Below are positions 324-38,621 of a stretch of DNA of 64,000 nt, one piece after another (within the stretch, counting starts at the first letter, position 1; every line of letters starts with the position of its first letter). The stretch comes from a phage. Under the pieces are notes generated by a model that saw only the letters and a list, made by a program, of their open reading frames with translations, was not told the DNA's origin and searched no databases. Both the position numbers and the translations under genes were made by a program. The stretch lies in the sequence record OZ335961.1; one strand, 5' to 3'.

Positions 324-784
324 AGAGAGTCTCTTAATAGGTTTAACACATCAATAAATTCAGCTTCGGTTAGTATTGTATCATCTTTTGTTAGACCACT
401 AGCCATGCTGTGCTTCAAAACTTTTCCTTTCGAGGCTTGTAACGCATCACGAAAGCCCCTATTTTGGAACGCTGCTTCAAAATATGCATTTGTGTATAAT
501 TCTTTCCACGCCGGTGAATATCTTGAAAACGGAACTCCAAGCCAAAAGAGGGTCCCACGGTCCTGAGCTCTAGCACAAGACCTTCCAGCTTGTTGGGCGG
601 CAAGCCCGGATAACCCAAATATACGACGTTGCTGTTCAACATTTTTCACCTTGCATCCTTGGAGGAATCCTTCGAGACCTCCAAATTGAATACCATCCAT
701 AACGAAAGGCCATTGGGCGAAATTACTTAATGCGCATGATGGCCATTTAAAATTGCTTCTTATCTCTAGCTCAGACATTTTCAA
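320..784 (-). CDS. NADAR (YbiA-like) domain protein
   Basis: 154 aa; SNFAQWPF..DG...GLEGFLQGCK resembles the YbiA/NADAR signature SNFaaWP..DG...sEHyFQAqK as recalled. Confidence 0.55.
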   Translation of the reverse strand: MKMSELEIRSNFKWPSCALSNFAQWPFVMDGIQFGGLEGFLQGCKVKNVEQQRRIFGLSGLAAQQAGRSCARAQDRGTLFWLGVPFSRYSPAWKELYTNAYFEAAFQNRGFRDALQASKGKVLKHSMASGLTKDDTILTEAEFIDVLNLLRDSL

Positions 785-977
785 TACTTATAATTTCAAC
801 ATCAGCCCAATGACCATAGCAAGGAAGACGAAATTCAACTGGCCAGTTAGGGTCCTTTTCTAATATAATAGACTCAACTTGTGGTTCTTCATGTTCATCA
901 GTATATGGATTTTTATCTGTTACTTTATATGTGACCTTAATATACTGAATTCCAAAAATCTTATTAATTATATTCAT
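771..977 (-). CDS. hypothetical protein (68 aa)
   Basis: ORF track; co-oriented and tightly packed with neighbours. Confidence 0.4.
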   Translation of the reverse strand: MNIINKIFGIQYIKVTYKVTDKNPYTDEHEEPQVESIILEKDPNWPVEFRLPCYGHWADVEIISIENV

Positions 978-1171
978 ACTAATTCCTTTAATCCGTAAAT
1001 AGGAGATAATTCATCGCCCATACGAAGGTCTTCATTTCCATCTACCCAGGAAACAATATAAGCCTCTTTTATTTGAATACCACTCCATTTAAATGGAGGT
1101 AGAACCTTAGAAATTAATCCAGGTATACCAACTCCCTTTAATTCAACAGTTTGACCTAAAAAGAATTTCAT
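974..1171 (-). CDS. hypothetical protein (65 aa)
   Basis: ORF track; 4-nt overlap with neighbours suggests coupling. Confidence 0.4.
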   Translation of the reverse strand: MKFFLGQTVELKGVGIPGLISKVLPPFKWSGIQIKEAYIVSWVDGNEDLRMGDELSPIYGLKELV

Positions 1172-1498: not shown

Positions 1499-1864
1499 TT
1501 AAATATCAAATTCGTTAAGAACTACATCAAAGATTGCTTCAAGATGCTCAGGTTTAGCTCTGTTACTCAGAATATGACGAATCCAAGTTTTAACCAGAAG
1601 TTTACGATTAACACCATTCCAGCAAGGATGAGTCCCTAAATCGCGTTGGCGAAAATCATCATCCAGAGCGATTTTAAAAGAAGAACCTTCTTTCGTGATT
1701 GAAACCGTGATGCCATTTTCAAATCGCATATAAACGTAGTTAGGAGTCATATACTGTTCAATTTCGCATACTGATCCATTTTGATGTTTCCAAAGGCAGA
1801 TAGTATCAATAGAACCTGCAATACCGTTAGAAACATATTTACGTTCAAAGTTGATGTAGTTCAT
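1499..1864 (-). CDS. hypothetical protein (121 aa)
   Basis: ORF track; early-promoter-like element upstream at ~1901-1930. Confidence 0.5.
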   Translation of the reverse strand: MNYINFERKYVSNGIAGSIDTICLWKHQNGSVCEIEQYMTPNYVYMRFENGITVSITKEGSSFKIALDDDFRQRDLGTHPCWNGVNRKLLVKTWIRHILSNRAKPEHLEAIFDVVLNEFDI

Positions 1865-1932: not shown

Positions 1933-2265
1933 TTATTTTACTACTTTCCAATGTTGCATGTCAAGTTTACCAACTTTTTTCATCTTCTCAATTAAGCGTT
2001 CGGCACGTTGGCGAGCTGTAACATAATACCATTCACCTAATTCATTTTGTTCAATTTTTCCAACGATTACTGTATTCAATTCATAAATCCAACCAGTAAA
2101 GAAATTATGAACTTGAATTGTAAAGGTGAAATCTGTTCCCATACCTTCTGTTGTTTCTACTTCAATAACATCACCTTCAACTGCCATTAAAAACCACATA
2201 GTTTCATCATATTTACCATTGAAGCATTTAGTTTTAACTGTAGCGTTCAGATTAATCGTTTTCAT
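1933..2265 (-). CDS. hypothetical protein (110 aa)
   Basis: ORF track; early-promoter-like element upstream at ~2293-2322. Confidence 0.5.
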   Translation of the reverse strand: MKTINLNATVKTKCFNGKYDETMWFLMAVEGDVIEVETTEGMGTDFTFTIQVHNFFTGWIYELNTVIVGKIEQNELGEWYYVTARQRAERLIEKMKKVGKLDMQHWKVVK

Positions 2266-2292
2266 TTTATTCTCCTTTGTTTGTGTAAGATA

Positions 2293-2322
2293 ATACTATC
2301 ACAAAGGAACCATACTGTAAAC
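2293..2322 (-). promoter_or_regulatory. T4-type early promoter
   Basis: Same GTTTAC-N18-hexamer architecture; precedes ORF 1933..2265. Confidence 0.4.
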
Positions 2323-2340
2323 AACTTTGTGCAATCTTTG

Positions 2341-2371
2341 AAAAATAAAAAAGGACTCCCGAAGGAGTCCT
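2341..2371 (-). terminator. rho-independent terminator (UUCG-loop hairpin + U-run)
   Basis: ggactcc-cgaa-ggagtcc perfect 7-bp stem; on the minus strand followed by a U-rich run. Confidence 0.55.
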
Positions 2372-2375
2372 CAAC

Positions 2376-2552
2376 TTATGCTTTCTGCTTACCAAAACGA
2401 GAAGCATCATCTCGAAGAACCGCACGTGCTCGGCGCATGATCTTCTCAACAGTTTGATTGATACGAGAGTTCGACCCACGCTTGTAACCAGCGCGTTTAG
2501 AATCACCAACTTTCTTTTCAACTGCTTTCTTTGCTTTAGCTTGTTTTGCCAT
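2376..2552 (-). CDS. small lysine/arginine-rich basic protein (~58 aa)
   Basis: ORF track trimmed to MAKQAKAKKAVEKK...; followed by a hairpin terminator. Confidence 0.45.
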   Translation of the reverse strand: MAKQAKAKKAVEKKVGDSKRAGYKRGSNSRINQTVEKIMRRARAVLRDDASRFGKQKA

Positions 2553-2949
2553 TATAAATTCTCTTTTAAATGAAAATGCAGGACTTATTGGCATTGCCTG
2601 CGAAAGCCCTCAAGGGGTACTTAGGTTTTGAATATTTACCGACAGGATAACCATAAACCTCGTCAACATACCTTATAGCTCTTATCTGTTGCACACCGTT
2701 AGCTTAAAGGTTCCGGGTTCGATTTCTCGAGGATAAGATATATACTGATGGATATATAGGCCTTGAGGCGTACTCCCGATTGGCCATCACCTCGGGGTAG
2801 CATGCACTTGCCGCTATAAGAATAACATTCAAGAGGTACACCGTAAAACTGCCGGGGTCTTAAAACTATAATGATTCGCAAATCATTAGTCAGACAGTTC
2901 GACGGCTCCTCGATTTTAGCTCACACTAAGGCAGTGAATCTCCAATAAA

Positions 2950-3198
2950 TTACTTCAGTGTTACCACAAAGTGACGAACTGCTTTTCGTGCGGCAGAAGC
3001 CAGAGGCTTAGCATATTTAAGTTCATCTTTTTCCTGAAGCTCAGCAGCTAATGCAGTTTGAGCAGGATTCAGATGTTTGAAATAACGCAGGATTTCAAGA
3101 GCTTCGGCTTCAACATCAATAGATGCGCCATAGTTTTCGTGACCATTATTCCATGCGTTTCGTTGCAGTTCAAGAGCGTGTTGTAATTGTTTAATCAT
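2950..3198 (-). CDS. rIII: probable rIII lysis-inhibition accessory protein
   Basis: 82 aa, immediately downstream of gene 31; matches the size and position of T4 rIII as recalled. Confidence 0.5.
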   Translation of the reverse strand: MIKQLQHALELQRNAWNNGHENYGASIDVEAEALEILRYFKHLNPAQTALAAELQEKDELKYAKPLASAARKAVRHFVVTLK

Positions 3199-3337
3199 TT
3201 AAAAATTCTCGTTAGAGATTAAAACTCGGTAGTCACGTTCTTCTGAATTTCATCTTCTTTCGACAGATCTCTCAGTTGTAGACTACCACATAGAATTGTT
3301 CGGTTAACTTATTATTCCGACACCCAATTCATATTAT

Positions 3338-3345
3338 TATTTATA
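3338..3345 (-). promoter_or_regulatory. possible late promoter TATAAATA upstream of rIII
   Basis: Minus-strand TATAAATA just after the gene 31 stop; long leader to rIII makes the assignment uncertain. Confidence 0.3.
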
Positions 3346-3681
3346 TCACTTATAAAGACACGGAATAGCTTTATAGTGACAGGTAACGAATTTTTGCTTA
3401 ATTTCTTTTGGCTGCTTAAGACCCAGAGCTACAAAAGGATGAGGAACGTTTCGAATTTGACCAACTGGAAGAGAAGTCAAATCACCAACTTCGCAGAAAC
3501 CTTCAGGAACATCAGGACCAACAGAGTGAACTACACACAGTTCAGGAACTTCACCTTGGACGCGTTTACCGATAATAAGTCCTGATTCTGTAACTTCTTC
3601 ATCACCGGCTTGTGCAGGTTCAGAAACTAAAATAACATATTCACCGACAGCACGAATTGGTAGCTGTTGTACTTCAGACAT
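3346..3681 (-). CDS. 31: gp31 co-chaperonin (GroES analogue for capsid folding)
   Basis: 111 aa [22 protein letters not shown]... matches recalled T4 gp31; position between rIII and cd. Confidence 0.85.
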
Positions 3682-36829: not shown

Positions 36830-36833
36830 AAAT

Positions 36834-36974
36834 TTACCATACTAGTGAATGTAGTGCCATAATAACATCAGAAATGAAAAGCACGACTTGAATTAATCCG
36901 AACATTACTCCATAATATAGTGCTACCAATAAAGTAGCAAGGGCTAATGAATAGCCCAAGATTTTCTTAATCAT
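36834..36974 (-). CDS. small hydrophobic peptide (~46 aa)
   Basis: Hand-translated MIKKILGYSLALATLLVALYYGVMFGLIQVVLFISDVIMALHSLVW; below ORF-track size cutoff. Confidence 0.3.
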   Translation of the reverse strand: MIKKILGYSLALATLLVALYYGVMFGLIQVVLFISDVIMALHSLVW

Positions 36975-37125
36975 TAGTAGATAACAACACAAATGTTAAA
37001 TATGCACACATACCCTGGGCTAAAGCTTGTGAAAACACACTGCTAGCATCGATACAGATAGTTAAAACACATGCTACTATCCAACAAATAAATGAAATAA
37101 CTCCTAATAATTTTGCAATATTCAT
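36967..37125 (-). CDS. small hydrophobic peptide (~52 aa)
   Basis: Hand-translated MNIAKLLGVISFICWIVACVLTICIDASSVFSQALAQGMCAYLTFVLLSTND; SD GAGGAAAA before ATG. Confidence 0.3.
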   Translation of the reverse strand: MNIAKLLGVISFICWIVACVLTICIDASSVFSQALAQGMCAYLTFVLLSTND

Positions 37126-37212
37126 ATTTTCCTCACTGGCGTCCGAAGACGCCTTTGGTTTTAAGATTGTTACGATAGAACTGCATCACATGTTCGTTAT
37201 GGAAATTACTCA

Positions 37213-37944: not shown

Positions 37945-38059
37945 AATTCACCTCAAGGAGTATAAAATCCGAATGCAGTTGTTGACCATCCCATCCAATA
38001 CGGAAAATTTGCACCAATGTAAAACATGAGAATATAAAACCAACCGCTCAGCAAATTCA

Positions 38060-38278
38060 TCATTTTACACCATTCCAAATTGTTTCAACTACAGATTTTA
38101 AGCCATTTTGGTGAATATCCATTCCGACAACTGCCATCAAATAAATTCCAACTACAACTGAACCTAAGGCGAAAATCAGCATGAAAATGAATAAAGCCGG
38201 AAAAATATTATCGAAAAACCATTCAACAAATGTAAAAGCACTGCGTTTACGCTTCATATTTTCCTCACATAAATCCAA
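38060..38278 (-). CDS. small membrane protein (72 aa)
   Basis: ORF track; central hydrophobic stretch FPALFIFMLIFALGSVVVGIYLMAVV. Confidence 0.45.
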   Translation of the reverse strand: MDLCEENMKRKRSAFTFVEWFFDNIFPALFIFMLIFALGSVVVGIYLMAVVGMDIHQNGLKSVVETIWNGVK

Positions 38279-38378
38279 AGTAAGCGTTTAATACATCAAT
38301 CATTAAAACGATTGGGAATATACTCAAAACTACTAGTATTATAACTACATTCCATATAGCTTTAACAATCTTTTTCAT
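38265..38378 (-). CDS. small membrane peptide (~37 aa)
   Basis: ORF track trimmed to MKKIVKAIWNVVIILVVLSIF... with GGAGG SD; an early promoter element lies inside the longer track ORF. Confidence 0.4.
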   Translation of the reverse strand: MKKIVKAIWNVVIILVVLSIFPIVLMIDVLNAYFGFM

Positions 38379-38406
38379 TTTCTGTTCCTCCGTAGTTGAT
38401 AGGGTA

Positions 38407-38436
38407 ATAATACCACAGAGGAACAGTCTTGTAAAC
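38407..38436 (-). promoter_or_regulatory. T4-type early promoter
   Basis: GTTTAC -35, TATTAT -10; precedes small membrane ORF 38265..38378. Confidence 0.45.
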
Positions 38437-38621
38437 AACTTTTTTAAAAATATTCGTAATAAATGTGAATACCAACTACTACCGCTGAAACTTGCGCAAC
38501 CCACCACGCACAAGCAATAAGCACAGAATTCAAAATTTTCATAATAACCTCATCACAAAAGTAAATACTAAACAAATCAATGGAATACTAATTAACCAAA
38601 CAAAACACCACCATAATGAAC

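Follow-up and report, generated by a model that had tools for sequence, protein, structure and literature searches.

In this study, we analysed the interval between the genes rIII and 30.9 in a 64,000-nucleotide stretch of phage DNA (sequence record OZ335961.1), which is referred to here as the window. The genes of this region lie on the minus strand in the order 31, rIII, 30.9, 30.8 and 30.7, which is the order found in phage T4, and the 951 bases around the interval are 99.2% identical to the corresponding sequence of Escherichia phage vB_EcoM_ACG-C40 and match more than 900 T4-like phage records. A preliminary description of this DNA had pointed to a non-coding island of about 400 bp at this place. 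Our analysis confirms this: positions 2553-2949 are exactly the interval from the rIII stop codon to the 30.9 start codon, the interval contains no conserved ORF, and its scarcity of ORFs is not a matter of chance. Within the island, just three ORFs reach 30 aa or more, with lengths of 42, 45 and 60 aa, and all are on the minus strand. The 60-aa ORF has no match in Pfam or PHROG, and when homologues of the central 158 nt were compared (33 distinct sequences), every reading frame was interrupted in some of them. With neither a Pfam or PHROG match nor a frame that is conserved across the homologues, a protein-coding gene or pseudogene was rejected. A PADLOC analysis of the island ORF and its neighbours and a PDB sequence search with gp30.9 returned nothing informative. 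The gaps adjoining the island measure 110 and 147 bp. Among the other stretches of 250 bp or longer in which no ORF of 70 aa or more was called, those checked hold tightly packed ORFs of 65-68 aa or, in the case of 37945-38621, several ORFs of 35-90 aa with TTG starts. In the checked part of the window, the island is the single clear gene-free interval. The features of the region are collected in Table 1.

Table 1. Genes, sequence motifs and RNA modules in and around the rIII/30.9 interval of OZ335961.1 (positions in the window)
Feature	Position	Strand	Remarks
Gene 31	3346-3681	minus	
TATAAATA box	3338-3345	minus	exact T4 late-promoter consensus, between gp31 stop and rIII start
rIII	2950-3198	minus	directly upstream of the island; module B on its 3' side, co-directional
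GGAG motifs	2937-2945 and 2904-2912	minus	flank module A, just 3' of the rIII stop codon
Module A	2921-2937	minus	small hairpin UCACU-GCCUU-AGUGUGA; read directly from alignments
Module A2	2868-2889	minus	AU-rich hairpin AAUGAUU-UGCG-AAUCAUU; only in this phage type and T4
Module B	2672-2820	minus	149 nt including the 8-bp closing stem P1
P1	2813-2820	minus	pairs with 2672-2679
J1/2	2801-2812	minus	GGCAAGUGCAUG; its GGC pairs with GCC at 2759-2761
P2 arm	2768-2801	minus	
J2/3	2759-2767	minus	CUCAAGGCC
P3	2738-2758	minus	
P4	2731-2738	minus	pairs with 2680-2686
P5	2719-2730	minus	GAAA hairpin
P6 and loop	2693-2718	minus	
J6/4	2687-2692	minus	GCAACA
Module C1	2624-2664	minus	H-type pseudoknot; stem 1 GAC(G)AGG/CCUGUC; loop GGUU pairs with AACC of A-rich tail
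Module C2	2606-2620	minus	hairpin GUACCCC-UUGA-GGGC; sole match in the window
Module C3	2578-2601	minus	hairpin GCAGG...CCUGC
Shine-Dalgarno region and ATG of 30.9	2550-2566	minus	
30.9	2376-2552	minus	T4 30.9 homologue, 59 codons, basic
First intrinsic terminator downstream of the island	2351-2372	minus	after 30.9

By aligning the rIII/30.9 gap of eight Tevenvirinae and then of about 25 more loci, we derived a map of the modules in the island. In the RNA sense (2949 to 2553, minus strand) their order in OZ335961.1 is A, A2, B, C1, C2, C3 and the 30.9 RBS. Among phage genera the modules are present, absent or permuted, the order being C1, A, B, C2 in JD18 and B, A, C2 in JC221, where they occur at another locus. 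The length of the gap across Tevenvirinae is 163 (AV117), 194, 204, 244 (T4), 305, 317, 352 or 397 bp (OZ335961.1).

The centre of the island is occupied by module B, a new RNA family that is strongly constrained and folds autonomously. Our model of it started from an RNAalifold prediction on 17 diverse copies, in which 22 of the 41 predicted pairs show compensatory changes, and was then refined by hand to give P1, the P2 arm, P3 and a P4 that encloses P5 and P6. With the corresponding covariance model (R1), a single copy is found in the window, at 2667-2824, with a score of 184.7 bits (E 7e-46). We propose that P1 leads into a fully paired four-way junction made up of P1, a GGC:GCC helix that continues into P2, P3 and P4. 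Directly behind P1 lies an invariant GGC that is able to pair with an equally invariant GCC right before P3, with one metagenomic copy showing a C to U change that gives U·G, and with this helix in place no unpaired nucleotide is left among P1, the P2 arm, P3 and P4, which would make the junction a perfect one. An internal loop in the P2 arm, AAGNGCAU opposite CUNNNG, is purine-rich and nearly invariant. The P4 arm ends in a three-way junction of P4, P5 and P6, with the invariant strands ACCYGGAMCC, GCUAACRGUGU and GCAAC, within which GAMCC...GCUAA (the P6 loop) and GCAAC (J6/4) are single-stranded. What varies in module B are the sequences of the helices, the tip of P2 and the loops of P3 and P5, the last of these being GAAA, GUAA or GGAA in most copies. 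About 45 invariant nucleotides are unpaired or adjacent to a junction. Covarying helices together with invariant loops and junctions are what one would expect to see in an RNA with a specific tertiary core.

The substitutions seen among homologues demonstrate the fold of module B. In a MAFFT alignment of 17 sequences, which is independent of any fit to the model, 96.4% of the cells are paired, a count that is inflated by relatedness because the family has little depth (identity exceeds 90% for most copies, and perhaps four lineages account for the divergent ones), and 23 of the 39 pairs show changes on both sides, against 4-8 such pairs in slid controls and 0 of 500 shuffles that match the observed value. 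An alignment of 33 distinct sequences, which leans towards the model because it was fitted to it, likewise has 96.4% of its cells paired, with the same inflation, and both-side changes in 25 of 44 pairs; here the slid controls give 4-7 pairs, and again none of 500 shuffles matches the observed value. Helices also differ in their sequences: P4 is UCUUAUC/GAUAAGA in OZ335961.1 and UUCGUG/CACGAA in the IMG/VR contig L066, and P1 is CUUAUAGC/GCUAUAAG in the former and AAUUGUAG/CUACGAUU in the latter. P6 is supported because a change from ACCCGG to ACCUGG is matched by one from AACGG to AACAG in two Slopekvirus-type lineages. The single-sequence centroid fold of the OZ335961.1 copy agrees with the model, the GGC:GCC helix included. 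Among the loop nucleotides, N19:N66 in the P2 internal loop is U:A in 27 sequences and G·U in five, with one exception, and besides this pair the sole hint of loop pairing is a C·A to U·G change at 99:160. The same alignment also establishes the strand. Over the 43 model pairs in 33 sequences, G·U occurs in 42 cells and A·C in none. Since the 42 G·U cells would be mismatches on the opposite strand, and in view also of the GAAA, GUAA or GGAA loops of most P5 hairpins, module B is an RNA in the sense of the flanking genes.

Module B is also conserved to a much higher degree than its surroundings. Its core of 134 nt is 95.5% identical between OZ335961.1 and JD18 (Jiaodavirus), 95.5% identical in Moon (Moonvirus) and 92.5% identical in EnA02 (Karamvirus), whereas the nucleotide identities of OZ335961.1 to the same three phages are 68-70% for gene 31, 71-76% for rIII, 68-80% for 30.9 and 58-60% for 30.8. 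Such identity in the core would call either for purifying selection on almost every base or for recent transfer. Recent horizontal transfer instead of purifying selection could partly account for the identity across genera; the compensatory pattern of the substitutions argues for a contribution of selection at the least. Among the options that the preliminary description had offered for the island, that of a structured RNA is strongly supported by covariation, by G·U pairs specific to one strand and by a degree of conservation that far exceeds that of the adjoining genes. Its suggestion of a regulatory region is plausible for the 3' third of the island only, where the candidate elements are a pseudoknot, hairpins and the 30.9 RBS.

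Module B is present in 407 GenBank phage records. All of these are T4-like phages (family Straboviridae), and nearly all have enterobacterial hosts recorded: Klebsiella in 161 cases, Escherichia in 130, Shigella and Enterobacter in 27 each, Yersinia in 18 and, further, Salmonella, Citrobacter, Serratia, Raoultella, Erwinia and others. In these records the module is almost always unannotated or covered by a 'hypothetical protein' CDS. The flanking island is found in about 1,000 records. There were no matches to module B among 5,426 complete E. coli genomes, and in 185,579 genomes of bacteria and archaea the full motif was matched twice by chance, both matches failing the covariance model. In metagenomes the full motif gave 14 contigs, and those of substantial length are T4-like in size. 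Scans of IMG/VR with half-motif patterns gave matches that are mostly due to chance, and locus sets seeded on UvsY and rIII contained no further variants of module B.

Module B is missing in T4, SA20RB, STML-198 and AV117, and all four phages have kept C1-C3. The breakpoints lie at the outer edge of the closing stem P1. In OZ335961.1 the sequence CTCTTGAATGT is followed by TATT, the module from P1 to P1, and then GTATGTTGACG, with the repeats GAATGT and GTATGT at the two ends; in T4, CTCTTGAATGT is joined directly to GAATGATGACG (GAATGT/GAATGA), and in SA20RB the junction reads CTCTTGA-ATGT-TGACG with a single ATGT. To judge from these junctions, T4 resembles an empty site, while the state in SA20RB resembles a deletion between ATGT repeats. 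Gain and loss are both conceivable, and an old element with repeated loss is favoured because module B occupies the same site in many genera. A second locus for the module was found in Klebsiella phage K41P2 (Slopekvirus), in Yersinia phage JC221 and in two IMG/VR contigs, where the copies score 119-123 bits. There it lies right after the small genes that follow uvsY, in a gap convergent with uvsW, and downstream of it there is only conserved non-coding sequence, which has a C2-type hairpin at its start and is followed by a bidirectional terminator. RB43- and RB16-like phages have no module B at the uvsY/uvsW site. Module B is therefore independent of any single neighbour gene, and what speaks most against a role as a simple leader or riboswitch is that it keeps its sequence and fold without a downstream 30.9.

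Promoter and terminator predictions suggest when module B is made. Exact TATAAATA boxes occur only six times in the window, one of them between the gp31 stop and the rIII start (Table 1), and in SA20RB a late promoter of the TATAAATA type is annotated upstream of gene 31. On the minus strand, transcription would meet its first predicted terminator at 2372-2351, after 30.9. With this box upstream and no terminator in between, late rIII transcripts should include the island. The copies at the uvsY locus have a CATAAATA or GTAAATA box that ends 1-4 nt before P1, the CATAAATA boxes being one base off the late-promoter consensus. On the basis of these boxes, module B should be made late in infection in both loci.

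Module B does not belong to a known RNA family, as scans with Rfam and intron models were negative. None of the 4227 covariance models of Rfam 15 matches the window at the gathering threshold; at E<=10, positions 2200-3400 give matches only to the 30.9 terminator and to other sequence outside the island, module B alone gives none, ribozyme models included, and the K41P2 copy with its flank gives just noise at E>0.4. A weak match to Atu_C8 at 2337-2420 on the minus strand (29.7 bits against a gathering threshold of 50, E 0.0013) reflects the generic terminator hairpin after 30.9 and not a homologue. The search for group I and group II introns on the island, which had been suggested as a check at the outset, likewise came back negative, with no Intron_gpI or group II match at E<=10; such introns are marked by a catalytic core (P3-P9 with the P7 G-site, or domains V/VI) and interrupt genes, and the element lies between genes and not inside one. 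ARAGORN found no tRNA or tmRNA in the window. A string resembling a tRNA T-arm (ccgggttcgat, GGTTCGAT-like, on the plus strand) is the antisense of the covarying P5 and P6 stems, and the junction strands and arm lengths of module B do not fit a tRNA-like cloverleaf. Two further resemblances, a string similar to h27 of 16S rRNA (GGGAGUACG..CAAGG) and one similar to the hairpin ribozyme, are not conserved in the divergent copies. Antitermination of the Put type was rejected since read-through at the uvsY locus would run antisense into uvsW. A search of the literature, including with sequence strings of module B, found no description of it, the comparison covering work other than the bulk catalogue of viral structured RNAs (PMC10690425).

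Short conserved modules of a different kind, the promoter-early stem-loops (PeSLs), have been described in T4-type genomes (Arbiol et al. 2010, PMC2839356; Comeau et al. 2014, PMC4122927). They consist of a terminator-like stem-loop and a sigma-70-type early promoter and occur in many copies per genome; in PST/T4 the early promoter is TTTACW-N17-TAYWAT (PMC4122927). Like module B, they are non-coding, are located at indel breakpoints and appear shuffled among phages. However, module B is a multi-junction RNA of 135-150 nt, is present as a single copy in the window and contains no promoter-like match, and hence it is not a PeSL cassette. In having an intricate conserved fold and acting as an RNA rather than as a gene-specific leader, it would resemble the phage and prophage RNAs ROOL, GOLLD and phi29 pRNA. 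It has no similarity to any of these in sequence or by covariance model and is much smaller than ROOL and GOLLD, and unlike phi29 pRNA it does not lie beside packaging genes, nor was a conserved complementarity between loops of separate molecules found.

Taken as a whole, our best explanation, to which we assign a probability of roughly 60%, is that module B is an autonomous RNA that binds a partner or is otherwise biochemically active, that it is made late and that it has a docked core. According to this model, the island would be transcribed together with its flanking genes from the minus strand as a string of independently folding RNA modules. Within module B, the two conserved loop regions on neighbouring arms, whose invariant nucleotides cannot covary, would dock into one compact core. 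The core may then act as an RNA itself, through binding of a conserved protein or a small ligand or through catalysis, independently of the gene that follows it. Module B would be carried mainly by late transcripts, which in OZ335961.1 would run from the TATAAATA box through rIII into the module and in Slopekvirus-type phages from the CATAAATA box directly into it. A bolder proposal, which we put forward only tentatively, is that module B represents a new class of catalytic or partner-binding RNA that functions late in T-even-type infection and escaped notice because the reference phage T4 lost it. Examples would be a self-cleaving ribozyme, or an RNA decoy or sensor for a conserved enterobacterial host factor or defence system.

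Narrowing this down to catalysis gives a reading that we consider unlikely, though it survives better than the remaining alternatives: module B would belong to a new class of catalytic RNA, self-cleaving or other, which processes the polycistronic transcript by separating rIII from 30.9 or trims the 5' or 3' end of a late non-coding transcript. With its compact multi-junction fold, in which some 45 nucleotides outside the helices or next to junctions are invariant, it shows a level of constraint typical of ribozymes and riboswitches, and in its intergenic position, the lack of a fixed neighbour gene and its patchy distribution it resembles many phage-borne small ribozymes. In the natural hairpin ribozyme, two arms of a four-way junction carry conserved loops. 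Module B is like it in shape only, having a four-way junction, conserved internal loops on two neighbouring arms that could dock and a compact size, both RNAs being of about 100-150 nt. The hairpin ribozyme is found in circular satellite RNA, whereas module B belongs to a dsDNA phage; it has in addition a three-way junction (P4/P5/P6), and its loops (AAGNGCAU/CUNNNG and GAMCC...GCUAA/GCAAC) are unrelated to the consensus of loop A (AGAA opposite the N*GUC cleavage site) and loop B. The hairpin ribozyme itself was rejected on the basis of these loops and the lack of a covariance-model match. Against catalysis in general speak the failure of every Rfam ribozyme model to match even at E<=10 and the fact that no candidate cleavage site can be named from the sequence.

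It is rather improbable that module B is a cis-regulatory leader, that is, a riboswitch or protein-binding operator which would control translation of 30.9 or read-through into it. Small, very basic proteins often autoregulate through structured leaders, as is the case for ribosomal-protein leaders. gp30.9 is a protein of this type, module B is located 5' of 30.9 on the same strand in all Tevenvirinae examined, it lies upstream of 30.9 in most phages, where it might act in cis, and the neighbouring C1 pseudoknot is conserved together with 30.9, T4 included. However, module B is optional in phages that keep 30.9 and C1-C3, as the four phages without it illustrate, and a distance of 100 nt or more, occupied by independent hairpins, separates it from the RBS. 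The distance from module B to the RBS and the modules found there, as well as their order, vary among genera. Neither a terminator nor a helix that would sequester the RBS overlaps P1, and in Slopekvirus-type phages there is no downstream gene at all; a generic riboswitch was rejected on these same grounds.

We think it quite improbable that module B serves as a passive barrier in RNA stability or processing whose compact fold would shield the upstream message, be it that of rIII or of uvsY, against RNase E or 3' exonucleases in the manner of REP-type or intercistronic stabilisers. Its location 3' of rIII at one locus and at the 3' end of the uvsY unit at the other, and the further stable hairpins (C2 and A) that always accompany it, would be consistent with this idea, but a barrier needs stable helices only, and in module B it is the junction and loop bases that are most conserved while the helices covary freely. 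An identity of 92-96% across genera is far more constraint than such a role requires. Finally, the idea that the island is non-functional, either as a decayed gene or mobile element (a homing-endonuclease remnant had been among the initial suggestions) or as a DNA signal such as an origin, a recombination site or a packaging site, would fit the presence/absence polymorphism with its short breakpoint repeats and the short hypothetical ORFs annotated here in some GenBank records, but it is made extremely improbable by the absence of protein similarity, by stops in every frame across the homologues, by compensatory substitutions at the RNA level that together with the excess of G·U over A·C cells reveal selection on one transcribed strand, and by a conservation that exceeds that of the essential gp31 gene.

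That an element of this kind seems to have gone unnoticed in the T4-like phages, which are among the most closely studied viruses, is probably because T4 is without it. Module B is more conserved than a nearby essential co-chaperonin gene, and its multi-junction, invariant-loop architecture is one that is usual for ribozymes and riboswitches. If it proves to be catalytic or to bind a host or defence factor, it would constitute a new class of functional RNA for phage biology, and many of its 407 carriers are phages of Klebsiella, Escherichia and Enterobacter such as have been put forward for therapeutic use. Close relatives differ by the exact presence or absence of module B and two loci carry it, and this natural polymorphism makes the question directly testable. 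Even with a modest role, module B merits an Rfam family, which would correct spurious 'hypothetical protein' annotations in many records.

Covariation is also seen in modules C1 and A, which flank module B. Module C1 is found in T4 as well (locus L001, about 1570-1620, minus strand). Its stem 2 is GGUU/AACC in OZ335961.1 and T4, GUGAG/CUCAC in Moon and EnA02, GUAGU/ACUAC in two further loci (L014 and L025) and UGGUU/AACCA in JD18, and its stem 1 covaries from A:U to U:A and from A:U to G:C, a pattern that was read by hand from alignments with offset MAFFT columns. We found no description of C1 in the literature and no Rfam match. Module C2, a GC hairpin of the general form GUACCC-loop-GGGGC, comes about 5-110 nt after module B wherever the latter occurs, and phages without module B retain it; it is not an intrinsic terminator because no U-tract comes after it. 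At the position of C3, other genera have a longer GGGAGC...GCUCCC hairpin, and STML-198 has CUGG/CCAG. Together with C2, C3 and the RBS, the C1 pseudoknot is a natural candidate for a translational operator of gp30.9. As an H-type pseudoknot with a loop and an A-rich 3' tail upstream of a gene for a small basic protein, it resembles the S15, S4 and L20 operators and preQ1-I; it differs from them in having no match to any of their Rfam models.

On the other side of module B, the middle pair of the module A hairpin covaries, being CAC/GUG in OZ335961.1 and CGC/GCG or UGC/GCA elsewhere. The place of module A relative to module B differs among phages: it is 5' in OZ335961.1 and 3' in JC221, and in JD18 module A stands between C1 and module B. 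A weak sigma-70-like match at 2893-2865 overlaps A2, and it is a consensus match only, of which 3 were found in comparison with 2.6 expected. GGAG, the motif that flanks module A, is the target sequence of the endoribonuclease RegB. The RIII protein has been reported to inhibit the S1-dependent activation of RegB (PMC9409239), and the GGAG motifs next to rIII may be either a coincidence or a feedback link with RIII and RegB.

Some additional observations were made in the course of this work. In the uvsY/uvsW gap of K41P2 (L104, 1555-1760, plus strand) and JC221 (L008, about 640-980, minus strand), a further 250-350 nt of conserved non-coding sequence lie 3' of module B. A hairpin in this gap, GCCAG-AAUAGUACCUCA-CUGGC, covaries with GUCAG...CUGAC in JC221, and a 39-aa ORF that is annotated in the JC221 gap is not conserved. 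In several records (e.g. MT630408, ON720975 and OR352947) 30.9 is labelled as a '1,4-alpha-glucan branching enzyme, GH-13-type', which is implausible for a basic protein of 59 aa. Elsewhere in the window, positions 36830-37212 form a stretch of 383 bp with just two overlapping 52-aa ORFs, which may be a second non-coding island.
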